The notes: generated from the sequence alone by a model not told the origin. A stretch of 32,000 bases of DNA from Acidothermus cellulolyticus 11B (GCF_000015025.1 NC_008578.1:780001-812000); one strand, 5' to 3'; counted from the stretch's first letter, positions 16,350-28,954 are shown. Translations and numbers: made by a program.

Positions 16350-18404
16350 TTATCGGTGGCCCATGCCTGCGACGGCGGCGAGCAACGCGATGAGAGCGGC
16401 AAGCATGTACGCGAGGTAGGCCTCGAGCCGGCCCGATTGCAGCCGTTTCACCCCAGCCACGACCCGGCGCGTCCACCGGATCAACGGCCGGTAGAGGAAG
16501 GCGCCGACCGCTTCGACGACGTCGCTGGTGTATCCAAGCTGGACGTCGCCCACTCCCCGCTGTCCCGACCCGGCCCGGCCGCCGGTCGCCGCTTCCAGCG
16601 CCCGCAGCTCCGTGCGCGTGAGCAGCAACCCGGCAAGCAGTTTCCGTGTCGGGTTGGTGTACCCGAACGCCGTGTACCGGTCATGGCCGGCCACCCCGCC
16701 GGTCGCCGATCGCCATGCCGGTACTCGGCGGACTCGAAGCATGGCCAGCCGGGATCCCGTCAAACCGATTCCGGCGGCCAGCGCGAGGAACCCGGGAAGA
16801 ACGATCCACAGCCAGCTCGGGGAGAGGATCGAAAAGTCGGCGAAGACCGGCTGCAGCACCCATGGTCCGTTGAGCGCTTGCGTCACCAGGTCACGCCCGA
16901 CGAGCGGATCCAGTCCGGCCGCGATGAAGCGGATCACCTCGGGCGCTATGGCGGCCGTCGCGAGGCAGACCAGGCTGAGTATTGCGACGGCTGATCCGCC
17001 AAGCCAGCCGAGATCACCGCGTTCTCTATTGGTTGCGGCTTGGCCGTTGCGCTTGCCCAGGACGACGAATCCGAAGAGCCGGACGAACGTCACGCCGGCA
17101 AAGCCGGTGGTCAGCGCAACGAGAGCACCCGCGACCGCCATCGCCACCTTGACGGCCAGGCCGGTGAGCCGGAACTGCTGCATGAGCGCCTCGAGGAGGA
17201 ACCATTCGGAGACGAAGCCTGCGGTCAGCGGCAATCCCGCCAATGTGATCGAACCGATCGCGAGTCCCGCGCCGGAGGCCGGCAGTCGCCGTCCGATGCC
17301 GACCAGCTCGTCGAGGTCGTCGCTTCCGACGTGCCGCTCAGGACCGGCCGCCGATACGAAGAGCAGCGCCTTCGCCGCGGCGTGAGCGATGACCTGCAGC
17401 GTCGCGGCAAGCAACCCAACGGCGACCAGCCGGGGTTGGCCGACGTACCAACCGGCCAGCGCCACCCCGTAACCGGCGAGAATCAGCCCGGCATTCTCCA
17501 CGCTGGAGTAAGCAATTACGCGCATCAGGTGCGTCTGAACCGCGGCATGCGCGATGCCCAGGATCGCGGTGATGCCGGCGACCACCAGGACGGCAACCAC
17601 CAGCCAGACGGGTGGGCGTCCGAGCAGCGCCGCCGTCCGGTACAGACCGTAGAAGCCCACGTTGACGGCCGCGCCGGCAAGCAGCGCGCGGACCGGGCCG
17701 ACCGCCGCGGCGTAGGTGGGCGGCACCCACACGTGAAACGGCAGCAGCCCAACCTTGCTCGCGAACCCGGCGACGAGCAGGGCGTACGCGATGTCGTGCC
17801 GCGGGCCGAGGTGGACGGCGAGGTCGGCGAACCGCCAGCCGCCGGGACCCTGTTGCGGCGCGGCCAGCAGCAGGAATCCCACCAGGAGCAGGCCACCGCC
17901 GATCTTCCCGAAGGAGAACGCGGTCATCGCCGCCCGACCGCCGCCGGAGCGCTGCGGCGCACCCGCGAGCAGGTAGAAGGCCAGCGACAGCAGCTCCCAC
18001 CCGCCGACGAGGACGAAGACGTCGTCCGCTGCTATGACCAGTGCGGCGGCGGCCAGGAGGAGCGCGATGCCTCCGCCGATTCCGTGGCGGCGGAGCCCGC
18101 GTCTCGCCCACTCGGCGACCGCCAGCAGGACAGGGACGGCGACGCCGAAGCAGATCACCAGGAAGAGGCCGGCGAGGTGGTCGACCCGCAACCCGCCGAC
18201 GGGCAGCGCGAGAAGGCGGTGGAGGTCGGCGGTCATCTGACGGCCGGTCATCGCGCGGGCCCCGAGAACGACGAAGAGCGCGGATCCGGCGGCCGCGAGA
18301 AGCGGGCCGCCCATCCGCGCCGGACCGACCCGGATCGGTACGACGAGATCCCAGACGATTGCCCCGGCCAAGCAGGCAAATCCAGCGATCAGCAGTTCGA
18401 TCAT
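16350..18404 (-). CDS. HyfB/NuoL-like antiporter-type membrane subunit (proton-conducting membrane transporter family)
   Basis: The start is set at ATG 18404, which forms an ATGA overlap with the upstream stop (MIELLIAGFACLAG...). The Arg-rich 130 codons upstream look non-coding. Family hallmarks: GGWELLSLAFYLL, SKVGLLPFHVWVP and HAAAKALLF. 684 aa. Confidence 0.85.
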   Translation of the reverse strand: MIELLIAGFACLAGAIVWDLVVPIRVGPARMGGPLLAAAGSALFVVLGARAMTGRQMTADLHRLLALPVGGLRVDHLAGLFLVICFGVAVPVLLAVAEWARRGLRRHGIGGGIALLLAAAALVIAADDVFVLVGGWELLSLAFYLLAGAPQRSGGGRAAMTAFSFGKIGGGLLLVGFLLLAAPQQGPGGWRFADLAVHLGPRHDIAYALLVAGFASKVGLLPFHVWVPPTYAAAVGPVRALLAGAAVNVGFYGLYRTAALLGRPPVWLVVAVLVVAGITAILGIAHAAVQTHLMRVIAYSSVENAGLILAGYGVALAGWYVGQPRLVAVGLLAATLQVIAHAAAKALLFVSAAGPERHVGSDDLDELVGIGRRLPASGAGLAIGSITLAGLPLTAGFVSEWFLLEALMQQFRLTGLAVKVAMAVAGALVALTTGFAGVTFVRLFGFVVLGKRNGQAATNRERGDLGWLGGSAVAILSLVCLATAAIAPEVIRFIAAGLDPLVGRDLVTQALNGPWVLQPVFADFSILSPSWLWIVLPGFLALAAGIGLTGSRLAMLRVRRVPAWRSATGGVAGHDRYTAFGYTNPTRKLLAGLLLTRTELRALEAATGGRAGSGQRGVGDVQLGYTSDVVEAVGAFLYRPLIRWTRRVVAGVKRLQSGRLEAYLAYMLAALIALLAAVAGMGHR

Positions 18405-19210
18405 TGCAACCGTCCCATGGCCAGGAGAAGCGCGTGCAACAGGGCGAACGGCGTAGGCGGCGAGCCGGGCACCCAGATGTCGACCCGTACGGGATCGCCG
18501 TCCGCGGCACCCGTGGCACCCGCCGAGTCCGGGGTCGCCGCGATGAGGTCGCCGATTCCCCCGCTGGTCGCGTACGTCGGATGGACCAACCCGCCGCTGA
18601 TCGCATCGGTGCCCGCTGCGATGACGACCAACGGCCGCGGCGCGGCCTGGAGAGTTCGGGCCAGCGGCGCGGCCATTCCCCGCGACCCGACGCCGGTGAC
18701 CAGCAGGACGTCGGCGTGCCGGGGGGATGCGGTAAAGAAAATCCCGAGCCGGTGGATGTCGTACACCGGATTGAGCAGGGCAAGGACCTCCCACTCATCG
18801 GCGCCGTCGGAACCGGCGTCCACGTGCCGGACATGGATGGATCGGCGCAGCAGCCGGGTCCGGCGGGCCAGCTCGGCGCGGACCGCAGCGAGGGCGTCGT
18901 CCGTTTCCGGGAGTGCGGGGACGACGAGGAGGTCCCGGTGCGCCGCCGGCGCAGGAATGGTGAACCGGAACCGCTCCGGATACTGCCGCACGCAGCGGTG
19001 ACAGAGAATGCACCGACCCTGATCGACGTGGAGCCGGTCTCCGTCCCGGCTGATGGCGCCGGTTGGGCAGACCGCGGGGATTTCCGCCGGAACCGCCTCA
19101 CCGGGTCGGTCGATGGGCGTGACCGCACCAGGGAACGTGTCGCGGTACGAGTCAGGGTGGGCCGGCCAGCGGCTGGTGACGCGGCGGCGACCACGGGTGA
19201 ACCACGGCAT
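18401..19210 (-). CDS. fusion of a ferredoxin-like (HycF/NuoI-type) N-terminal domain with a NuoB/HycG-like small-subunit domain; the NuoB-like domain contains no cysteine
   Basis: NuoB/HycG-type body: SPRHADVLLVTG, VIAAGTDAISGG and VDIWVPGSPPTP. The N-terminal part has VCPTGAI and CILCHRCVRQYP. These four are the only Cys in the 269-aa protein. The ATG overlaps the TAA of the large-subunit gene (TAATG). Confidence 0.8.
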   Translation of the reverse strand: MPWFTRGRRRVTSRWPAHPDSYRDTFPGAVTPIDRPGEAVPAEIPAVCPTGAISRDGDRLHVDQGRCILCHRCVRQYPERFRFTIPAPAAHRDLLVVPALPETDDALAAVRAELARRTRLLRRSIHVRHVDAGSDGADEWEVLALLNPVYDIHRLGIFFTASPRHADVLLVTGVGSRGMAAPLARTLQAAPRPLVVIAAGTDAISGGLVHPTYATSGGIGDLIAATPDSAGATGAADGDPVRVDIWVPGSPPTPFALLHALLLAMGRLQ

Positions 19211-20709
19211 TACAGCGCCACCCCCGCGATGGAGAGCCCGAAACTGGCTTCGATGAAGGGAAAATCCGTGAGGATATCGCCGGCGAAAACGTCGTGGAAG
19301 AGCACGAGGTTATGGAAGGACGCCGACCGCGGCGCACATCGGGAAATCCGCCCGTCGTCGCACTCCACGACATAAACGACCTCGCCCTGCGGCGCTTCCG
19401 CCCAACCGATGCCGCGGCCGCTGATCCGGTCGATGGCGGCAGGCACGTCGGCCGGCTCGGCGGTCGGAGCCGACAATGCCGCGATGTGTGCGACGGCCTG
19501 CCGGATGAGCTCCGCCGAACTGCGGATTTCCGACCACCGGATTTCCAGCCGTGCCAACGCATCGCCGGATCCGGAGGACACCGCCGGAAACTGCGGCAGA
19601 TCGGAGTACTCGTCGTACGGCCGATGCCAACGGTCGTCGTCGTCGAAACCTGACGCCCGCCCGATCGGTCCGAGGGCGCCGTGCCGGCGGGCGAGTGCCG
19701 GGTCGAGTGGTCCGGTGCCGCGGAGCCGGTCGAGGAAAGACGGCGTCTGCATGAGCAAGTCGGCGTCCGCGAAGACCTCACGGAGAATGTCGTCCAGCCT
19801 GGTGAGCAGTGCGTTCGGGGAAATCGCTGGTTCGCAACCGATACCGCCGGGTACGACGACACCGCGGCCGAAGCGGCTGCCGCACGCGGCGCCGATAAGC
19901 CGCAGAATGCGCTCCTTGTGGTAGCCGAATCGGGACACGGCAACGGCCAGCCCGGCGGCGTCGGCGAGTTTCAGCGCGACGTCGAGGTGGTTGGCGATGC
20001 GTTCGAGTTCCGCGAAAATAACCCGCACCGACCGGTCCCGCGGTGACGGGATGACACCGGCGAGGTCTTCCACCGCATGGCAGAAGGCGAGCGCGTGCGC
20101 CACCGAGGCGATTCCCTCGACCCGTTCCGCCAGCAATACGCCGTCGGAGACGTCGAGGTCCTCGAAGCGCCGCTCGATGCCGCGATGCTTGGCGAAGACG
20201 CGGATGCCGACGTACGGAATGTCCTCTCCCGGGGTTTCGACGAGATACTCCACGGATTCATAGACACCGGAGCGGACGGGTCCGTGCGGAATGGTGAAGA
20301 CGCCATGGCCGAGGACCCGCGACGGGATGGCCGCTTCGTCCGGGGTGAGCGGCGGTATCGCCGAGCGCTGTCCGGGCAGCGGACGCGGTTGTGCCTCACG
20401 GAGCGGAAGAATCAGCGGGTCGAGCCGCGGATGCCCGAGCGGTTCGAGGCCGAAGAGGTCGTGGATTTTCCGCTCATACCAACTGGCGGCCGGCACCACG
20501 GCGGAGAGCGCCGGGTAGCTGGTTGATCCGCGCGGAACCGCGACGTCGATGGCGTCGATGCTGCCGGCGCTGGCCAGAAGCGCCGTCAGCCGGAGGTCGG
20601 ACTCCGGGGGAGCGGTGGCGAACAGGCTGGCGAATCGGTTCGAGGCGAGCCGGTCGAGGATGTTCGTCCGCCAGACGGCGATATCTGCGGTCAGCGGGGT
20701 CAGCGTCAT
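19210..20709 (-). CDS. fused NuoC-NuoD / HycE-like large subunit lacking the NiFe-binding cysteine motifs
   Basis: NuoC-like WYERKIHDLFGLEPLGHP, then the NuoD/large-subunit core: HGPVRSGVYESVEYLVETPGEDI and FAKHRGIERRFE. The start is set at ATG 20709 (TGATG overlap with the upstream stop). 499 aa. Confidence 0.85.
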   Translation of the reverse strand: MTLTPLTADIAVWRTNILDRLASNRFASLFATAPPESDLRLTALLASAGSIDAIDVAVPRGSTSYPALSAVVPAASWYERKIHDLFGLEPLGHPRLDPLILPLREAQPRPLPGQRSAIPPLTPDEAAIPSRVLGHGVFTIPHGPVRSGVYESVEYLVETPGEDIPYVGIRVFAKHRGIERRFEDLDVSDGVLLAERVEGIASVAHALAFCHAVEDLAGVIPSPRDRSVRVIFAELERIANHLDVALKLADAAGLAVAVSRFGYHKERILRLIGAACGSRFGRGVVVPGGIGCEPAISPNALLTRLDDILREVFADADLLMQTPSFLDRLRGTGPLDPALARRHGALGPIGRASGFDDDDRWHRPYDEYSDLPQFPAVSSGSGDALARLEIRWSEIRSSAELIRQAVAHIAALSAPTAEPADVPAAIDRISGRGIGWAEAPQGEVVYVVECDDGRISRCAPRSASFHNLVLFHDVFAGDILTDFPFIEASFGLSIAGVAL

Positions 20710-22247
20710 CAGCCACCTCCGAGTTCTACGGCGCCGCGGGTGAGCAGGTCGATGAGGGACGCCGGAGGGTGCATCCCGAGCAGCACGAGAACAGCCAGTC
20801 CGAGCACCGGCGGGATCACGAGCCACGCGCTGAATTCGCGGCCCAGCCGGGGGGTCGGCCGATCCGGCGTCTTGGCGATGCTCTCGTCCGACGTCCGGCC
20901 GTCCGCCGCGTTGGATGACAATGAAGCGGACGCCGTGGTGATTCCGGCTTCGTCGGCGGGGAAAACCAGGGCGGTGGTCGTCCAGGTGAGACCGGCGAAG
21001 GCGAGGATGACGAGAGCGACGAGCACCGCGACGGTGCCGCTGTGGCCGGCGGCGAGTCCACCGGCGACGATATAGAACTCACTGCGGAAGATTCCAAACG
21101 GCGGCGCGGCGGCAAGGGCGAGTATCGCCAACAGGAAAAGCGGCGCGGACCAGGGGAGTACGGTGAAGCCGCGACGCATGGCGGTGAGATCCTTCGTTCC
21201 GAACGCGCGGACGAAAACCCCCGCCCCCATGAACGCGTTTCCCTTCGCTGCAGCGTGTGCGAGGACGTGCAGCAGAACGCCGACGACGGCAATGCGGGCG
21301 CCGAAACTCATGCCGACGGCAAGAATTCCCATGTGCTCAATGCTGGAATAGGCAAGCAAGCGTTTGATATCCCGTTGGTCGAGCAGGTACAGCGCCGCGA
21401 GGGCGAGCGACGCGATGCCGAAGGCGAGCAGGACCTGGCGGGGAAAAGCAGCGCCGAGGGTTGCGACGGCGACTTGGTAAAAACGGAGGATCGCGTAAAA
21501 GCTTACTGCGAGAAGCGAGCCGGAGAGCAGGGCCGAGACGGGTGTCGGCGCTTCGGAATGTGCATCGGGCAGCCAGGTGTGCACCGGAAAGAAGCCGACT
21601 TTCGTCCCGAAACCAAGGACGGCAAGGACGAATCCAAGCCGGACGGCCGTGTGCGGAAGTCCTGCGGAGTGCATGGTGAGGGCGTCGAAGGTGAAGGTGT
21701 AGGACGTGCCAAGCACCTGTGAGCCGGCGTAGTAGTAGAAAACCGTTCCGAAGAGGGCAAGGCCGAGACCGGCTGACGCGATGAGAACGTATTTCCAGGC
21801 GGCTTCCGTTGCGGCGTCGGTGTCGTCGATGGCGACCAGGAGCGCAGAAATGACCGTAGTGAGCTCGACCGCGACCCAAAGGAGGGTGAATCCGTTGACC
21901 ATCGGCGCCGCCAGCAAGGCCCACGCGAAGAGGTTGATGCCGGCGAGGATGCGCCGGCAGTATCGACGGTCGACGTGCTCGGGCCGTAGATAGCCGATGG
22001 CGTAAAGCGCAACGGTGGCATACACAAGCGCGGTGGCAAGGAGAAAAATCGTGGAAACCGCGTCGACCCGGAGAAAACCGGCGGCGACGCTATGGGCACG
22101 CGTCGCGGTAACCAGCGCCAGGACCGCGCCGAAGGAGCCAACGCCGACACCCGCGGTGAGGATCCGGCCCGCTGTTGGGGGAGCGATGAGGCAGACACCG
22201 GCGGCGACGAACGGTACGACAAGGAGTGCAACAAGAAGTGTGCTCAC
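20709..22247 (-). CDS. HyfF/HyfD/NuoN-like antiporter-type membrane subunit
   Basis: Hallmarks WVAVELTTV, TKVGFFPVHTWLPDAHSEAPTPVSALLSG and HAAAKGNAF. The start is set at GTG 22247 (VSTLLVALLVVPF...), 4 nt after the upstream stop and preceded by GGGGGTGAG. Confidence 0.85.
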   Translation of the reverse strand: MSTLLVALLVVPFVAAGVCLIAPPTAGRILTAGVGVGSFGAVLALVTATRAHSVAAGFLRVDAVSTIFLLATALVYATVALYAIGYLRPEHVDRRYCRRILAGINLFAWALLAAPMVNGFTLLWVAVELTTVISALLVAIDDTDAATEAAWKYVLIASAGLGLALFGTVFYYYAGSQVLGTSYTFTFDALTMHSAGLPHTAVRLGFVLAVLGFGTKVGFFPVHTWLPDAHSEAPTPVSALLSGSLLAVSFYAILRFYQVAVATLGAAFPRQVLLAFGIASLALAALYLLDQRDIKRLLAYSSIEHMGILAVGMSFGARIAVVGVLLHVLAHAAAKGNAFMGAGVFVRAFGTKDLTAMRRGFTVLPWSAPLFLLAILALAAAPPFGIFRSEFYIVAGGLAAGHSGTVAVLVALVILAFAGLTWTTTALVFPADEAGITTASASLSSNAADGRTSDESIAKTPDRPTPRLGREFSAWLVIPPVLGLAVLVLLGMHPPASLIDLLTRGAVELGGG

Positions 22248-22251
22248 GATC

Positions 22252-22926
22252 TCACCCCCGCAATCCACTGAGTTTCCGGGTGGAGAGCGACTGCCGGCGA
22301 TTGTGATGAATGCGGATGAGGGCGCTGAACACCACAACGGCGACGAGCAGGTCGAAGAGCAGGACGACTTCAAGCAGGAACGGCATCGTCGCGGCGATGA
22401 CCAGGCTCGCCAGTGAGACAGCGTTCTCCATCGAGAAGAAACCGACCGCCTGCGACACGACGTCCCGACGGAAAATCATGAGGATGAAGGCGACCAATAC
22501 CGCCGCGACGGCCAGCGAGAGCGCGGTTCGCGGAAGAACGGCCGCGCGAATCGGCAAGCCGGCGGTGGCGAAGAAGCCGAATGCCGTCGCCAGGAGTGCG
22601 CACAGCGTCCGCGTCGCAACACCCAGGACGCCGCTGCCGGCGATGTCCGTACCGGTGTCGCGGAGCATGCGGCGCAGAACGGCAGGAACCGCGAGCACCT
22701 TCAACACCGCGGACAGTACGGCGAGGGCATAAAGGTCGGGTACGTTGCGTTGCTGCGCCGCAATGGCCGCGAGGACCGCGAGCAGCAGCGACTGCCCGGC
22801 GTACAAGCGGATCTGGGCCGGCAGGAGGGCGGCGCGGAGCATGCCGAACTCGGCGAGGAGAACGAGGACGGCGATGACGTCGGCGACGCCGTCAAAGACC
22901 GGCGGCGCCGGTGTTCCGGTCGGCAT
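22252..22926 (-). CDS. HyfE-like small polytopic membrane subunit (NuoK-related)
   Basis: 224 aa. The start is set at ATG 22926. Multiple hydrophobic helices. FFSMENAVSLASLV resembles the HyfE conserved segment. Size and position match hyfE / mycobacterial hycP-type genes (from memory). Confidence 0.7.
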   Translation of the reverse strand: MPTGTPAPPVFDGVADVIAVLVLLAEFGMLRAALLPAQIRLYAGQSLLLAVLAAIAAQQRNVPDLYALAVLSAVLKVLAVPAVLRRMLRDTGTDIAGSGVLGVATRTLCALLATAFGFFATAGLPIRAAVLPRTALSLAVAAVLVAFILMIFRRDVVSQAVGFFSMENAVSLASLVIAATMPFLLEVVLLFDLLVAVVVFSALIRIHHNRRQSLSTRKLSGLRG

Positions 22927-22963: not shown

Positions 22964-23926
22964 TCATCCGCCTCCCAGGTAGACGGTGAAAACGGCCAGT
23001 ACAGCGAGAAGAAACGCGGCGGCGACAAATTCGCTGATTTTGAAGAGGCGGAGCTTGGCGAACGAATCGTCGATGACCGCCACACCGACGCCGACGAGGG
23101 CGGCCTTTCCGAGGAGGGCGAGGACGGCGAGAATGACGGCGGCGAGTGAGCCGTCGGAGGCCAGACCCCACGGTGCGACAAAGACATTGAGGAAGATGAT
23201 GTACAGGATGAATTGTTTCATCGCCGCGCCCCACCGGAGCATGGCCAGGTAGGGCCCGGAGTGCTCGAAACTCCGCGCCTCTTCGATCATCCCGAATTCG
23301 TTCGTGCCGCTGTGCGTCTCGATCGGGATGCGGCCGGTCTCGTAGAGGATCACCAGGAAGAACGCGGCAGCGGCCAGCAGGTGCGCCGGGCGCACGATCT
23401 GACCCGCGCTCTGCCGCACGGTGGCCGCCAGCGCATACGGCAGGTCGGTGCTGGTGAGCAGTGCGACGGTGAAGACGACGAACAAGACGACCGGTTCCGT
23501 TATGGCGCCGAAGGTCTTCGACCGGCTCGATCCGAGCTGGGCGTATGGCGAGCCCGTCTCGGCGGCGGCAAGGGCCACCGCGAAACTGGCCAGCGCCAGG
23601 AGGAAGCCGCCGCCGAGAATGTCGCCCATGTAGCCGAGCGGCAGGCCGTAACTGGTGAGGACGGGAATGAGCAGCGGGATGGTGAGATAGCACACGAAAG
23701 CGACGAACGGTGCGGCAAGGAAAATCCAGCTCGCCTCCAGCGGTGCGAGTGACTCCTTGCGGAAGAATTTCACGATGTCGTAGTAGGGCTGGAGAATCCG
23801 TGGACCGCGCCGTCCTTGCAGCCGGGCCTCGAGACGCGCGATGAACCCGGAGAGGCCGGGCGCGGCCAGGGCCACCGTCCCGACCTGGAGAACCTGGAGG
23901 AGAACGGGGGAGAGCCGTGGATTCAT
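22964..23926 (-). CDS. HycD/HyfC/NuoH-like membrane subunit
   Basis: RLQGRRGPRILQPYYDIVKFFRKE and YETGRIPIETHSGTNEFGMIEE are NuoH/HycD-type motifs. 320 aa. First long gene of the operon. Confidence 0.85.
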   Translation of the reverse strand: MNPRLSPVLLQVLQVGTVALAAPGLSGFIARLEARLQGRRGPRILQPYYDIVKFFRKESLAPLEASWIFLAAPFVAFVCYLTIPLLIPVLTSYGLPLGYMGDILGGGFLLALASFAVALAAAETGSPYAQLGSSRSKTFGAITEPVVLFVVFTVALLTSTDLPYALAATVRQSAGQIVRPAHLLAAAAFFLVILYETGRIPIETHSGTNEFGMIEEARSFEHSGPYLAMLRWGAAMKQFILYIIFLNVFVAPWGLASDGSLAAVILAVLALLGKAALVGVGVAVIDDSFAKLRLFKISEFVAAAFLLAVLAVFTVYLGGG

Positions 23927-24265: not shown

Positions 24266-24748
24266 GTGTCAGACGATGCAGATCAGTCAGCTGCAGGCTC
24301 GCCGGAGAGCGTTGCCGGTTCCGTCGTGTTTCTGGCGGATGTGCGGCTGCTGCGCGCCTTGAGCACTATTCTCCGGACGGCGGTCGATCTGCAGCGGGAC
24401 GCAGCGCGGGTGATTGATGCCTGCTTGGAGCCGGGAGGCAAGACGGCCGACCTTGCGCGGCTGGGCGGCCGCGTCACCAGCGGCTATTTCCGCCTCCGCG
24501 AGCAGTTGCGCAGCATGCCGGACCACCCTTTGGTCCGGGAGGTGGATGCGTTGGTGAATTACCATCAGCAGATCGTCGAGCAGGCGATGCTCTTCGGATA
24601 TCGCGGGTTCGACGCCGGTCGGGAGAAGGTGCTCCGCGGCTGGTCCGACCGGTTGGGCGCGCCGGCGCAGCGGCTGCGCGATGTGTACGTCGAGGTGCAG
24701 CGGCGGCTCGCCAATCGGGAATACCAGGACGGCGAACGCCCGGGGTAG
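24266..24748 (+). CDS. hypothetical protein (predicted all-helical, no family recognised)
   Basis: 160-aa ORF with GC3-biased codons, starting at GTG 24266. A hairpin plus T6 tract lies downstream. Confidence 0.5.
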   Translation: MSDDADQSAAGSPESVAGSVVFLADVRLLRALSTILRTAVDLQRDAARVIDACLEPGGKTADLARLGGRVTSGYFRLREQLRSMPDHPLVREVDALVNYHQQIVEQAMLFGYRGFDAGREKVLRGWSDRLGAPAQRLRDVYVEVQRRLANREYQDGERPG

Positions 24749-24772
24749 TTGGCGCTGTCTTGGCCGCGGGCT

Positions 24773-24795
24773 CCGGCGGGACCGGCCGGTTTTTT
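24773..24795 (+). terminator. candidate intrinsic terminator
   Basis: GC stem CCGGC/GCCGG (24773-24777 / 24785-24789) is followed directly by TTTTTT (24790-24795). A T6 run is conspicuous in this very GC-rich sequence. It lies 25 nt after the stop of the 24266..24748 gene. Confidence 0.5.
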
Positions 24796-24882
24796 CCGTC
24801 GTCCTCGTTGACACCTCAGCGTTGGTTTTCGGTCGCGGACCGGCCGGTTTCCGCGCCCGTCGCCGGAGCCGGCCGGCGGGCT

Positions 24883-25686
24883 TCACCGCGTGGTCATGCC
24901 GCGGCACAGCTCGATTGCGAGGACCCGGTCCAGATAGGCAAAGGTTTCGAACTTCGCGCCGTCGGGGAGCCGAGGGTCCGCGGCGGCGGCCCGGAGCAGA
25001 TCGACTACCCGCGGCAGGTCCAGATCGTCCTCGAGTGCTTGCCGCGCCGCCTGGACATACTCGGCTGGCACCGGTGCGGACGGGCAGTCTGCCCAGGCCG
25101 CGACGGCGCTTCGCCACGCGGTGAGATCGGCCTGCGCCGCCGCCAGGTGCGAGTGGTCAAGGAGGACCGGCCGCGCATAGTGGCGGGCCGACAGCGCCAG
25201 GCGTTGCGCGAGGGGATCGGCGTCGCGCGGGAAGTTCCGCCAGGCGCCGGCGACCGCGACCGTTGGGACGTCGGCGCCGGGTGTCAGTGCATCCGCCGGT
25301 ACGACGCGCAAGTGAGGGCGACCGAGCAGGACGTCGGCGCCGGGTGTCAGTGCATCCGCCGGTACGACGCGCAAGTGAGGGCGACCGAGCAGGACGTCGG
25401 CGGCCTCGGTGTCGGTCTCGACGACGTCGTGCGGAGGTGCGATGCCGAAGTCGTTGCACACGACGTTCAGCCAGGAGCGCGTGTGCGTCGGGGAAACCAC
25501 GGCCGTTAGGACCTGAATCCCGGAGAGCTCACGGATTCGCCGGAGACTATCACCGACCAGCAGGACGCGGACGCCGGTGAGGTCGGCGGCGCTGTGCGGC
25601 TCGGGCGGCGTGACGACCATGCGGAGCACCGCACTCCCGCCGACGGCGACGAGCCGCCGGGTCACGGCGTCCCGGAGCTGGAGCAC
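24883..25686 (-). CDS. truncated MshC / cysteinyl-tRNA-synthetase-like protein, predicted catalytically inactive
   Basis: The N-terminus aligns by eye with the class I Rossmann start of MshC/CysRS, but the HIGH position reads DLTG. The C-terminus (DPLAQRLALSARHY ... LTAWRSAV ... ALEDDLDLP) resembles the MshC/CysRS helical domain. There is no KMSKS. It is 267 aa versus more than 400 aa for the enzymes. GTG start. Confidence 0.55.
   Translation of the reverse strand: MLQLRDAVTRRLVAVGGSAVLRMVVTPPEPHSAADLTGVRVLLVGDSLRRIRELSGIQVLTAVVSPTHTRSWLNVVCNDFGIAPPHDVVETDTEAADVLLGRPHLRVVPADALTPGADVLLGRPHLRVVPADALTPGADVPTVAVAGAWRNFPRDADPLAQRLALSARHYARPVLLDHSHLAAAQADLTAWRSAVAAWADCPSAPVPAEYVQAARQALEDDLDLPRVVDLLRAAAADPRLPDGAKFETFAYLDRVLAIELCRGMTTR
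25266..25402. repeat. perfect 63-bp tandem duplication (2.2 copies) inside the MshC-like CDS
   Basis: 25266-25328 equals 25329-25391, and the match continues to 25402. The duplication is in frame and doubles the 21-aa peptide ADVLLGRPHLRVVPADALTPG. Confidence 0.95.
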
Positions 25687-25916
25687 GGTCCCACGGTAGC
25701 GAGACCGGCACGTGCCGGAATCTTTCGCTTAGGACCGATCCCCGCGGTCGTTGCGCCGGGACCGGTCCCGGCGCCGTCTTCGCTCAGGACCGATCCGTCC
25801 GTCGTCTCTGTGTCAGGGCCGATCGAGCCGCCGCGGGTAGACTGAACGCGGCGATGAAGCCCGCCGACAATGCGCCGCCCGGCTGATGGCTTCTACCGAG
25901 TTCGGTGGAGGTCGTC

Positions 25917-27467
25917 ATGACGGTGCTCAAGGAGCGGGCCGCAAAACCGAGTGTTCTCTTCGTCGACCCGACGGCGTTGGCGGCGGTCGACGAGCAGCCC
26001 GAGTTCTTCAAGGACCTCCATCTCGACGAGATCCTGGACGTGATTCTCGCTGGATACGAAGAATATGGGCTGCGGCCGTTGTTCTACCAACCGTTAGGTG
26101 ACGTCGACGCCGTCCGGTATCGGCACGAGGTCTTCCGGGATCTTCAGGATGCGGGCATCCGCGAAGCGGTTGACGCGTTCACCGCTGCTCTGCGCGACAT
26201 GCGCAACGCCTTCGCGATGAGCGAAAAACTCTCTTACCCGCAGCAGAAACAACGGTGGTTCCTCGACGCTGCTTTGATCTACTGTAACGCCGTTGCCTCA
26301 TTGGCGCGTCGATTCTCCCGGATGCCTCTCGGCTCACGAGGACTTCAGGCACTTGCCGATTACCTTCAGGGTTACGTCGCATCGCCGGCGTTTACCCGTC
26401 TTGCCCGCGACGCCCGGTCCGTGAGCGATGCGCTGGCCGGCGTTCGGTATGCGGTGCATATCAAGGGGAGCCAGGTGCGCGTGCAGCGCTATGCCGGGGA
26501 GCCGGAGTACAGCGCCGAGGTGACCGAGACGTTCGCCCGATTCCAGCAGCGGACCGGCGCCGATTATCGGGTCACCTTCAGCGAATCCGCATACATGGAT
26601 CACGTCGAGGCGCGCATCGCGGATCTCGTGGCTGCGCTGTACCCGGCTGAGTTCACCGCCCTTGTGACGTTCACCGAGGTGCACGCGGATTTCCTGGATC
26701 CGGTGGTGGCGGCCTTTGACCGCGACATTCACTTTTACCTGGCGTATCTGCGGCATGTGGAGCGGCTAACGCGCGGGGGACTGCCGTTCTGCTATCCAGA
26801 ACTGTCGACGACGTCGAAGGAAACCGTGGTCCGCGGCGGTTACGATCTCGCTCTTGCCATGACGCGTGACGGAGAGCCCGGCGCCATCGTGGGCAACGAT
26901 TTCTCGCTTGACGGCGGGGAGCGCGTCATCGTGGTGACCGGACCCAACAGCGGAGGGAAGACGACGTTCGCCCGCATGTTCGGACAGGTGCACTACCTTG
27001 CGAGTCTCGGTCTGCCGGTGCCGGCGCGCGCGGCTCGGCTGTTCCTTCCCGATCGGGTCTTTACGCACTTCGAACGGGAGGAGCAACTTGCGACTCTGCG
27101 CGGCAAGCTGGACGACGAACTTGTCCGGCTGCGGGACATCCTGGCGCATGCCACCGCCAGGAGCGTCATCGTGATGAATGAGAGCTTCTCTTCGACGGCG
27201 TTGCGGGATGCGCGTTACCTCGGCGCCGAAATTCTGCGCCGTGTCCTCGGGCTGGACGCCATCGGCGTTTACGTGACCTTCGTCGACGAGCTTGCCTCGA
27301 TCGACGGGAGGATCGTGAGCATGGTCGGGATCGTCGATCCCCGCGACCCGGCCCGGCGAACGTACCGGTTCGAGCGCCGTCCCGCAGACGGCCGGGCGTA
27401 CGCCCTCGCTGTTGCGGCGAAATACGGTCTGACATACGAGCAGCTTCGCCGGCGGGTGGCGTCGTGA
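25917..27467 (+). CDS. MutS-family ATPase (core plus ABC ATPase domains only), paralogue A
   Basis: Walker A VVTGPNSGGKTTFARM followed by the MutS-like LASLGLPVPA. Walker B region VIVMNESFSST. ATG 25917 lies 5 nt after GGAGG (25907-25911). The ORF is open from GTG 25905. Confidence 0.8.
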   Translation: MTVLKERAAKPSVLFVDPTALAAVDEQPEFFKDLHLDEILDVILAGYEEYGLRPLFYQPLGDVDAVRYRHEVFRDLQDAGIREAVDAFTAALRDMRNAFAMSEKLSYPQQKQRWFLDAALIYCNAVASLARRFSRMPLGSRGLQALADYLQGYVASPAFTRLARDARSVSDALAGVRYAVHIKGSQVRVQRYAGEPEYSAEVTETFARFQQRTGADYRVTFSESAYMDHVEARIADLVAALYPAEFTALVTFTEVHADFLDPVVAAFDRDIHFYLAYLRHVERLTRGGLPFCYPELSTTSKETVVRGGYDLALAMTRDGEPGAIVGNDFSLDGGERVIVVTGPNSGGKTTFARMFGQVHYLASLGLPVPARAARLFLPDRVFTHFEREEQLATLRGKLDDELVRLRDILAHATARSVIVMNESFSSTALRDARYLGAEILRRVLGLDAIGVYVTFVDELASIDGRIVSMVGIVDPRDPARRTYRFERRPADGRAYALAVAAKYGLTYEQLRRRVAS

Positions 27468-28954
27468 AAGTCTTTCTCATGCACCCGGAGCAGGATTTCG
27501 ATCCGCAGGCTCAGTTGCCGGAGCATGCCGACGACCTGATCCGTGACCTGGAACTGGAGACCCTCCTGGCGGCTATGGCGGGCGGTGACGATTATCTGCT
27601 GACTGTCGCCCGCGCGGGTGTCCTGCATCCTCTCGCCGATCCCGCCGTGATCCGCTATCGTCAGGAAATTCTCGCCGACTGCCTGCGCCATCCCGACGCC
27701 CTCCGGGCCTTGTATCACCTTGCCGCCGAGGCCGTCGCCGCGGAAAAGAAGATCTGGCGGACCTTCTGGAAGTCGCCGGACATCATCCTGCATCGAGCCC
27801 TCGAGGTGATGGGTGTTTTCCTCGGCTATATTCGGCGGTTGCGCACACTCACCGATACGTACGCCGAGATGTTCTCCGCCCCGGGTCTTCAGCGGTTCAT
27901 GCGTATGGTCGGCGAGGAACTCTCCGACGAGTACCTCCAGCGGGTCGAGAATCATCTGGCGGAGCTCTCTTTCCGGCGCGGCGTCCTGCTCAGCGCCCGT
28001 CTCGGCCGGGGAAATAAAGGGGAGGACTACACGCTGCATCGGTACACGGAGCGCAGCCTTCTGCAGAGGATTGCTTCGGGCGAGCGCCGCGCTGCGGGTT
28101 ACACCTTCCGCATTCCGGACCGCGACGAAGCGGGTCATCGGGCGCTGTCGGAATTGCGCGGCCGGGGACTGAACGTGGTTGCGGACGCGCTTGCCCGGTC
28201 CGCCGACCATGTGCTCTCGTTCTTTGCGGCTCTCCGCGCCGAGCTGGGTTTTTACCTCGGCTGCGTGCAATTGGCGGAACGGCTTGCGTCGCTCGGCTGC
28301 CGGTGGTCGTTTCCCGATGTGCACCAGCCGTCGGCCCGCCGTTTCCACGCGCGACATCTGTACGACGTCTGCCTCGCCTTGACGATCGGCGGGCCGGTGG
28401 TCGGCAATGACGTCGACGCGGACGGGAAACTTCTCGTTCTGGTGACGGGACCCAATCAGGGCGGGAAGTCGACGTTCCTGCGCAGTGTCGGACTGGCCCA
28501 GTTGCTCATGCAGGCTGGGATGTTCGTTCCCGCCGACGCGCTGGACGCGAGCGTCGCCGGGGGAATTTTCACGCATTTCAAACGCGAGGAGGATCCGGCT
28601 CTGCGTGGCGGAAAGCTCGAGGAGGAGCTCGCCAGGATGAGTGCGATCGCCGACCGCGTGCACACCGGCTCGGTCGTCTTGTGCAATGAGTCGTTCAGTG
28701 CCACCAATGAACGCGAAGGGTCGGAGATCGCCCAACAGGTCATCGATGCATTCATGGACTGCGGCGTCCGCGTCTTCTTCGTGACGCATTTGTACGACCT
28801 GGCGCGCCGGTACAGCGAGCGGCAGGACCGGCGGGTGCTGTTCTTGCGGGCGGAGCGACTGCCCGACGGACGGCGCACCTTCCGGATGATCGTCGGTGCA
28901 CCGGAGCCGACGAGTCACGCGGCGGACTCCTACCGCCGGATTTTCGGCCTCTGA
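27464..28954 (+). CDS. MutS-family ATPase (core plus ABC ATPase domains only), paralogue B
   Basis: Walker A LVTGPNQGGKSTFLRS followed by LMQAGMFVPA. Walker B region VVLCNESFSATNEREG. The GTG start overlaps the stop of paralogue A (GTGA). An alternative ATG lies at 27479. Confidence 0.8.
   Translation: MKVFLMHPEQDFDPQAQLPEHADDLIRDLELETLLAAMAGGDDYLLTVARAGVLHPLADPAVIRYRQEILADCLRHPDALRALYHLAAEAVAAEKKIWRTFWKSPDIILHRALEVMGVFLGYIRRLRTLTDTYAEMFSAPGLQRFMRMVGEELSDEYLQRVENHLAELSFRRGVLLSARLGRGNKGEDYTLHRYTERSLLQRIASGERRAAGYTFRIPDRDEAGHRALSELRGRGLNVVADALARSADHVLSFFAALRAELGFYLGCVQLAERLASLGCRWSFPDVHQPSARRFHARHLYDVCLALTIGGPVVGNDVDADGKLLVLVTGPNQGGKSTFLRSVGLAQLLMQAGMFVPADALDASVAGGIFTHFKREEDPALRGGKLEEELARMSAIADRVHTGSVVLCNESFSATNEREGSEIAQQVIDAFMDCGVRVFFVTHLYDLARRYSERQDRRVLFLRAERLPDGRRTFRMIVGAPEPTSHAADSYRRIFGL

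Follow-up and report, generated by a model that had tools for sequence, protein, structure and literature searches.

The window analysed here is a 32,000-nucleotide stretch of the Acidothermus cellulolyticus 11B genome (NC_008578.1:780001-812000), and positions below are counted from its first nucleotide. On its minus strand lie six genes, separated by overlapping or tight junctions, and the fifth of them is the subject of this work. This small-subunit gene (18401-19210; 269 aa; ATG at 19208-19210 and TGA at 18401-18403) fuses a HycF/HyfH/NuoI-like ferredoxin domain to a HycG/HyfI/NuoB-like domain, and its product carries Asp, Asp, Asp and Ser at the four positions where related proteins use Cys to hold the proximal [4Fe-4S] cluster. 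The other genes of the operon, in the order in which they are read and on the same strand, encode a HycD/HyfC/NuoH-like subunit (320 aa; 22964-23926), a HyfE-like membrane subunit (224 aa; 22252-22926), a HyfF/NuoN-like antiporter-type subunit (519 aa; 20709-22268), a NuoC+NuoD/HycE-like large subunit without the [NiFe] ligands (499 aa; 19210-20709) and, after the small subunit, a HyfB/NuoL-like antiporter-type subunit (684 aa; 16350-18404). The small-subunit gene is joined to its neighbors by TAATG on one side and on the other by ATGA, in which the start of the HyfB/NuoL-like gene overlaps the small-subunit stop. Matches of the operon proteins to NCBIfam models all fell under the curated cutoffs (for the HyfE-like subunit, NF008556 at an E-value of 3.5e-20), indicating that no curated model covers them.

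Residues 92-269 of the small subunit (18404-18937, minus strand) constitute the NuoB/HycG-like domain, which was recognized by Pfam, by its match to HycG and by Foldseek. The Pfam match to Oxidored_q6 (PF01058) spans residues 138-262 (E-value 5e-16; 59 bits, where the cutoff is 27). When all PDB chains were searched with phmmer, the best match was E. coli HycG (7z0s_G, E-value 6.7e-27), followed by Pyrococcus MbhJ (6cfw_J, 6.9e-19) and then by NDUFS7/NuoB chains. The same two chains, 7z0s_G and 6cfw_J, were the best Foldseek fold matches (probability 1.00) of the AlphaFold2 (AF2) model, whose mean predicted local distance difference test score is 76.7, with values of 86-96 across the ferredoxin core (residues 31-80) and the lowest confidence around the ligand loops, in blocks 131-140 and 201-220.

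Pfam returned weak Fer4-type matches to residues 46-84. A profile of the N-terminal domain (residues 1-91; 18938-19210, minus strand) matched HycF (7z0s_F) over residues 1-100 with an E-value of 1.7e-21 and MbhN over residues 8-102, and it matched NuoI/TYKY as well; the MbhN and NuoI/TYKY matches cover the full N-terminal and ferredoxin regions. On these matches, the domain is of the HycF/NuoI type rather than a generic ferredoxin, as a first-pass annotation of the sequence had proposed. The same search recovered both the N-terminal TxxYP segment and the HycF/NuoI-homologous ferredoxin core, the two features of a HycF/HyfH/NuoI subunit.

A residue-by-residue alignment with chains of solved structure located the proximal-cluster positions. 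In the first ligand segment, VDAGSDGADEWE of the query aligns with VDCGGCNGCEIE of HycG (7z0s_G) and with GSCNGCDIE of MbhJ (6cfw_J), which places D135 and D138 of GSDGADE (G133-E139; 18794-18814, minus strand) at the first two Cys positions. GACGNSGG of the solved structures reads GTDAISGG in the query (G200-G207; 18590-18613, minus strand), with D202 at ligand position 3, and PGCPP reads PGSPP (P248-P252; 18455-18469, minus strand), with S250 at ligand position 4. The NuoB/HycG-like domain contains no Cys, so the four-Cys proximal/N2 ligand set that is the hallmark of NuoB and HycG is absent from the small subunit, while SPRHADVLLVTG is intact. The first-pass annotation had read D/D/D/S at these positions, within motifs that were otherwise preserved, and both parts of that description held. 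An alignment error was considered and rejected, since three independent alignments, with HycG, MbhJ and NDUFS7, concur and none recovered a Cys.

The loop immediately ahead of ligand position 4 also carries an 18-residue Ala/Gly/Asp-rich insertion, AATPDSAGATGAADGDPV (residues 224-241; 18488-18541, minus strand), between GGIGDLI and VDIWVPG. This insertion is present in none of 23 aligned homologues, and AF2 confidence in it is low.

The small subunit has four Cys in total, C48, C67, C70 and C73, all of them in the N-terminal domain. Ferredoxin motif 1 has lost its three leading Cys and is reduced to its Cys-Pro (VC48PTGAI; C48 at 19067-19069, minus strand), while motif 2 retains C67-x-x-C70-x-x-C73 (18992-19012, minus strand) and has Y77-P78 in place of its Cys-Pro (Y77 at 18980-18982, minus strand). 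This register is supported by alignment with relatives in which both motifs are complete. Two complete CxxCxxCxxxCP motifs, the hallmark of HycF/HyfH/NuoI, are therefore absent from the small subunit, and one ligand set is left. In 2x[4Fe-4S] ferredoxins, the Cys-Pro of motif 1 pairs with the CxxCxxC of motif 2, so the residues retained in the query are the four ligands of a single [4Fe-4S] cluster, whereas none of the four ligands of the other cluster remains. The Cys count and the ligand bookkeeping of the earlier annotation were thus correct.

To assign the retained cluster we turned to complex I, taking the ligands of E. coli NuoI to be C60/63/66/70 and C99/102/105/109. NDUFS8 Cys126 is a ligand of N6a (PMC9783039), and the E. 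coli/ovine residue pairs given in PMC8357420 yield an offset of +17, which together with the NuoI numbering that we assume makes Cys126 the equivalent of NuoI C109, the Cys of the motif 2 Cys-Pro. In addition, E. coli NuoI Cys74, four residues past the motif 1 Cys-Pro, lies in the N6b environment (PMC8357420). We conclude, partly on the assumed numbering, that N6a is held by motif 1 with the motif 2 Cys-Pro and N6b by motif 2 with the motif 1 Cys-Pro. The set kept in the query is then N6b-like and, given the complex I electron path of N6a to N6b to N2 (PMC10068793), a neighbor of the vacated proximal site.

Conservation was assessed in a set of 121 sequences, comprising the query and its 120 best HMMER-ranked homologues from a search of 5.8 billion proteins (56-70% identity to the query). 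Position 135 is Asp in all 121; position 138 is Glu in 81, Asp in 38 and Ala in 2; position 202 is Asp in 120 and Glu in one; and position 250 is Ser in 109, Ala in 8 and Asn in 4. Each of the four Cys is invariant (121/121), and mean column identity across the homologues is 53%. The family consensus at the ligand positions is D/E/D/S, with the query's D138 a minority state, and position 77 is Arg in 99 of the 121 sequences and Cys in none. The residues that the first-pass annotation gave for positions 138 and 77 are therefore right for the query, but most of the family has Glu138 and Arg77.

A scan of one genome per species with the patterns SDG[SA][ED]EWE and WVPGSPP[ST]P identified a relative of the small subunit in at least 454 species genomes. 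These patterns favor D135, position 138 and S250, and those positions were accordingly judged on the HMMER-ranked set and on a search of cluster representatives (below). D202 and all four Cys lie outside the patterns and are conserved in 81 of 81 sequences of the scan set. The best 80 genomes of the scan are almost all from Actinomycetota, including Pseudonocardiaceae, Amycolatopsis, Streptomyces, Nocardia, Actinoallomurus, Acidimicrobiales and Acidothermus. Among the cultured carriers in the scan are Amycolatopsis orientalis DSM 43388, A. nalaikhensis, Actinacidiphila alni and Streptantibioticus parmotrematis. We conclude that the replacement residues are under strong purifying selection.

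Members of the family appear in databases as NADH:ubiquinone oxidoreductase, as ferredoxin or as Ni,Fe-hydrogenase III small subunit/ferredoxin. Such labels are wrong for this subunit, which has no ligands for a proximal cluster and whose complex is NiFe-less.

Conservation of all four positions could be taken to mean that an iron-sulfur cluster persists at the proximal site with Asp/Glu/Asp/Ser as its ligands, and examples of [4Fe-4S] clusters with one Asp or Ser ligand do exist, as in Pyrococcus furiosus ferredoxin. However, we know of no natural cubane with zero Cys ligands. Furthermore, Ala is accepted at positions 250 and 138, and the loops in question are those where the AF2 model is least confident. 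We regard a non-cysteinyl iron-sulfur cluster at this site as highly improbable.

The large subunit has undergone a corresponding loss at the [NiFe] site. Its L1 segment, RVCGICGFAH in HycE/MbhL, reads RVEGIASVAH (RVE198GIA201SVAH); in L2, the C-terminal DPCxxC is replaced by GLSIAG (GLS493IAG496), and the protein ends in EASFGLSIAGVAL. Neither [NiFe] cysteine motif, L1 (RxCGxCxxxH) or L2 (DPCxxCxxH/R), is present in the large subunit, and all four [NiFe] Cys are lost. Among 76 large-subunit orthologues the replacement residues are again conserved, with E198 and G496 in all 76, A201 in 67 and S493 in 73. The beta1-beta2 loop, GPVRSGVFESVEY, is nearly invariant in the same set (R146 and E151 without exception, Glu at position 154 in 72 of 76), and K174-H175-R176, in which R176 is the arginine of the HRG motif, is found in 76 of 76. 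The equivalent of R176 in E. coli, NuoD Arg250, has been assigned to the N2 environment (PMC8357420), which would place R176 opposite the small-subunit carboxylates. The quinone-head ligands of complex I are missing: the position of Nqo4 Tyr87 is Gly199, and that of His38 is Phe or Tyr.

Complexes that are like group 4 hydrogenases but lack the [NiFe] ligands have been described under the name Ehr, for energy-converting-hydrogenase-related (PMC6349859, PMC10284858, PMC4378227, citing Coppi 2005 and Marreiros et al. 2013). As in group 4 hydrogenases, NuoH-like and antiporter-like membrane subunits are encoded in the same operon here, and as in Ehr complexes a NiFe-less large subunit is encoded together with a small subunit and NuoH/NuoL/HyfE-like membrane subunits. 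Judged by its sequences, the six-gene complex is an actinobacterial Ehr-type, Hyf-like complex.

One further feature of L1 was observed. E198 (20116-20118, minus strand) occupies the first [NiFe] Cys position and, as given above, is an invariant Glu throughout the clade with D/E/D/S small subunits; in the four Ehr relatives outside this clade for which L1 was read, the position is Ala or Ser, whether or not a proximal cluster is kept. The change at E198 may have accompanied the loss of the proximal cluster.

Synteny across loci was judged by tblastn. The order of the six genes is kept in essentially all loci with enough flanking sequence (~80 species loci). Of the operon's products, conservation is highest in the NuoH-like subunit, at 58-85% identity across the family. 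When open reading frames (ORFs) around these ~80 loci were clustered, no neighbor beyond the six genes was conserved, the largest non-operon cluster being present at 9-10 loci. It follows that there is no dehydrogenase partner in cis: no formate dehydrogenase, carbon monoxide dehydrogenase, NuoEFG or hyp genes. Residues associated with the membrane arm are largely retained in the window. The loop between transmembrane helices (TM) 5 and 6 of the NuoH-like subunit has the acidic motif EEarsfEHSG, and the NuoN-like subunit has the TM5 Glu, TM7 Lys and TM12 Glu.

In one locus of the set, from an actinomycete metagenome-assembled genome (L054, 7330-10216), a second, divergent set of NuoH-like, HyfE-like and NuoN-like genes lies directly downstream of a D/E/D/S-type operon, with identities to the window proteins of 51%, 32% and 40%, respectively. 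This arrangement suggests paralogous Ehr/Hyf-like systems side by side.

These data bear on whether the operon might be a neutral relic, decaying or non-functional, in which the replacement residues are accidental. The three Ehr papers cited above assign no function to these complexes, and the copy in the window carries the 18-residue low-complexity insertion. Against this stand intact, syntenic and coupled operons in a family of the size given by the species scan, a NuoH-like subunit that is strongly conserved, and replacement residues and four Cys that are conserved against the much lower mean column identity, a pattern that does not fit decay. The chance that the operon is a relic is, in our estimation, close to nil, and conservation effectively refutes it; a pseudogene reading was likewise considered and rejected. 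The first-pass annotation had argued for a selective loss rather than random decay and had named conservation among orthologues as the check. The D/[DE]/D/S residues proved to be conserved together with the four Cys, in an operon that is intact and translationally coupled.

To place this loss among relatives, we searched 1.84 billion cluster representatives exhaustively with HMMER, obtaining 2684 matches at E-values of 1e-3 or below and 78 at 1e-30 or below, and sorted the best 150 representatives by twelve ligand columns. This library is rich in fragments and frameshifted sequences, and assignments at ligand position 4 are noisy in it. Three classes were found. Three-cluster relatives have a fused small subunit with both ferredoxin motifs complete and the proximal CCCC; two-cluster relatives have the ferredoxin pattern of the query (motif 1 Cys-Pro with motif 2 CxxCxxC) and keep the proximal CCCC; and the one-cluster class is the D-[DE]-D-S clade of the query. 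The two-cluster form is intelligible if the retained cluster is N6b-like, since such a cluster would feed the proximal cluster directly. Exemplar loci from each class are Hyf-like operons whose large subunit already lacks the [NiFe] Cys, which indicates that the [NiFe] site and the first ferredoxin cluster were lost before the proximal cluster. Loss thus probably began at the [NiFe] site, continued with the N6a-equivalent ferredoxin cluster and ended with the proximal (N2-equivalent) cluster.

Further variants without a proximal cluster read DVDS, DIDD, DTDN, TDES and ECED, and what persists most among the forms that lack it is Asp at ligand positions 1 and 3. In a rough neighbor-joining tree, without support values, the D-[DE]-D-S group forms one clade with the DIDD and DVDS forms just outside. 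Tentatively, proximal-cluster losses outside the query clade were independent. A case that bears on this is a non-actinobacterial locus of 47% GC (L089, 1483-8783), in which a small subunit without the proximal cluster reads D/T/D/N and shares the GTDAVSGG motif; its operon has a different gene order, beginning with a NuoL-like gene that is followed by two chromate-transporter-family genes. The D/T/D/N form either arose by a separate loss or belongs, as a distant member, to the query lineage.

The conserved residues at the vacated site could also mean that the complex is still a redox enzyme, in which Asp/Glu/Asp/Ser would form a mono- or dinuclear site for a redox-active hard metal, Fe or Mn. 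That metal would lie within electron-transfer distance of the N6b-like cluster, and electrons from soluble ferredoxin would reach the new center and drive ion pumping. The kept cluster does adjoin the vacated site, and carboxylates and Ser, conserved here, are classic hard-metal ligands. The site is flanked by invariant H126, H129, D131, E139 and E141, the invariant E198 of the large subunit was seen in the D/E/D/S clade only, and the DVDS, DIDD and DTDN lineages likewise have Asp at ligand positions 1 and 3. However, E139 and E141 occur in ordinary HycG and MbhJ too, two of the 121 sequences have Ala at position 138, and Ala or Asn can stand at position 250. In addition, no conserved electron-donor or maturation genes were found near the ~80 loci, and the canonical quinone-head ligands are replaced as described above. 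We consider a hard-metal redox enzyme the main rival reading, possible but unlikely. A broader proposal is that Asp/Glu/Asp/Ser, perhaps with H126/H129 and E198, forms a new non-cysteinyl metal center or, alternatively, imitates reduced N2 by its fixed charge, in either case at a single electron-transfer step from the N6b-like cluster; the complex would then be a redox-gated ion transporter or an enzyme with a new carboxylate-metal active site. This we would advance only as a speculation, and a rather improbable one.

Instead, we tentatively favor, at somewhat less than an even chance, a reading in which the carboxylates are a surrogate for the anionic cluster and the complex is a redox-independent or redox-gated ion translocator. 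Asp135, Glu/Asp138, Asp202 and Ser250 would fill the cavity and mimic the negative charge of the bulky [4Fe-4S](Cys)4 unit. If distances in homologous complexes are a guide, their likely partner would be the large subunit's invariant Arg176, and a redox-inert cation might or might not take part; a salt bridge from D/E/D/S to this Arg appears to be as good a reading of the site as cation binding. Such pairing would preserve both the fold and the charge of the NuoB/NuoD/NuoH coupling interface. Ions (H+ or Na+) would most likely be moved as by an Mrp-type module, and the lone cluster would be either a structural element or a sensor of redox state, O2 or nitric oxide that gates transport.

With no cluster chain and no catalytic metal site, hydrogenase, quinone reductase or sulfur reductase activity would not be expected, and electron delivery to an active site has very probably ceased. 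The first-pass annotation had stated that the remaining cluster has no wire to the former active site. The predicted absence of both proximal and [NiFe] ligands agrees with that statement, but the N6b-equivalent cluster is not isolated from the carboxylate site.

Three observations weigh against an ion translocator of this kind. First, the invariant [4Fe-4S] ligands, Glu198 and the near-invariant beta1-beta2 loop are just as compatible with some surviving redox or catalytic chemistry. Second, Mrp works without a NuoB/NuoD/NuoH-like module, and the strong selection on that module is not accounted for by pure ion transport. Third, the central TM8 Lys position of the NuoN-like subunit (E. coli NuoM K265) is Ala.

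The complex was compared with known systems. The best sequence and structure match for every subunit was to E. coli hydrogenase-4/formate hydrogenlyase (FHL)-2 (HyfB, C, E, F, G, H and I) or FHL-1 (HycC-G; PDB 7Z0S). The module composition is the same, and the adjacency of hyfH and hyfI in E. coli accounts for the fusion seen in the query. In contrast to the E. coli systems, the query complex has no [NiFe] site, no proximal cluster, one ferredoxin cluster rather than two, and no HycB/FdhF partner. With complex I NuoB/NuoI, the query shares the fold, SPRHAD-type motifs, the HRG arginine of NuoD beside the cluster site and the N6b-type ligand topology, whereas the N2 ligands, the N6a ligands and the quinone-binding Tyr and His are absent and the NuoI-like and NuoB-like subunits are fused. 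Pyrococcus MBS/MBX (PDB 6U8Y) is, like the query complex, a NiFe-less descendant of a membrane-bound hydrogenase with a complex-I-like architecture. MBS/MBX, the most thoroughly studied of the NiFe-less relatives, has been described as retaining all three [4Fe-4S] clusters, the proximal one being catalytic (PMC7684303), whereas the query family lacks the proximal cluster entirely.

Mrp-type cation/proton antiporters (PDB 7QRU), for which a redox-independent mode of action has been proposed (PMC9568556), share with the query antiporter-like subunits that have the TM5 Glu, TM7 Lys and TM12 Glu. However, Mrp has no NuoB/NuoD/NuoH/NuoI-like module, and its MrpB/E/F/G subunits are absent from the query operon. 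The operon thus does not have the MrpA-G composition without a peripheral arm, because it holds NuoH-, NuoCD- and NuoI-NuoB-like genes.

The closest relationship is to other Ehr complexes, which share the NiFe-less large subunit and the NuoH-, NuoL- and HyfE/HyfB-like membrane subunits. The query family differs from them in lacking also the proximal [4Fe-4S] ligands and one ferredoxin cluster; sister Ehr lineages keep CCCC. The searchable Ehr literature, which did not include Marreiros et al. 2013, where a prior mention is possible, describes only the loss of the [NiFe] ligands and neither the Asp/Glu/Asp/Ser replacement nor a three-, two- and one-cluster series. What appears to be new is therefore the conserved Asp/Glu/Asp/Ser at the proximal site, as predicted from alignment, within an otherwise known Ehr-type complex whose mechanism is proposed from comparison.

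Elsewhere in the window, the operon is surrounded by housekeeping and sugar-use genes, namely gltX, tig, clpP, a GT2 glycosyltransferase, an MFS transporter and DeoR/DeoC/FGGY genes. Two plus-strand ORFs, of 160 aa (24266-24748) and 249 aa (24760-25509), lie immediately upstream of the operon in divergent orientation; they have no Pfam match and are not conserved beside the operon in other species. Beyond these, two tandem plus-strand genes with overlapping ends (25905-27467 and 27464-28954; 520 and 496 aa) match MutS domain V (ATPase) and no other MutS domain; the two, which adjoin tig and clpP, appear to be paired MutS-related ATPases.

It has long been asked of complex I and its hydrogenase relatives how ion translocation is powered by redox chemistry at the NuoB/NuoD/NuoH junction. 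The family described here amounts to a natural experiment, in which the junction, its loops and the antiporter-like subunits remain under strong selection while the [NiFe]/quinone site and the N2-type cluster have been deleted. A complex-I-like module that naturally lacks N2 would allow charge at that site to be tested for coupling to ion translocation, and the family is experimentally tractable, being common in cultured soil actinomycetes (Amycolatopsis, Streptomyces, Nocardia and Actinoallomurus). Should ion transport prove to need no redox input, the complex would connect Mrp antiporters with complex I from the opposite direction; redox gating or a new metal site would instead amount to a new cofactor arrangement in the superfamily.

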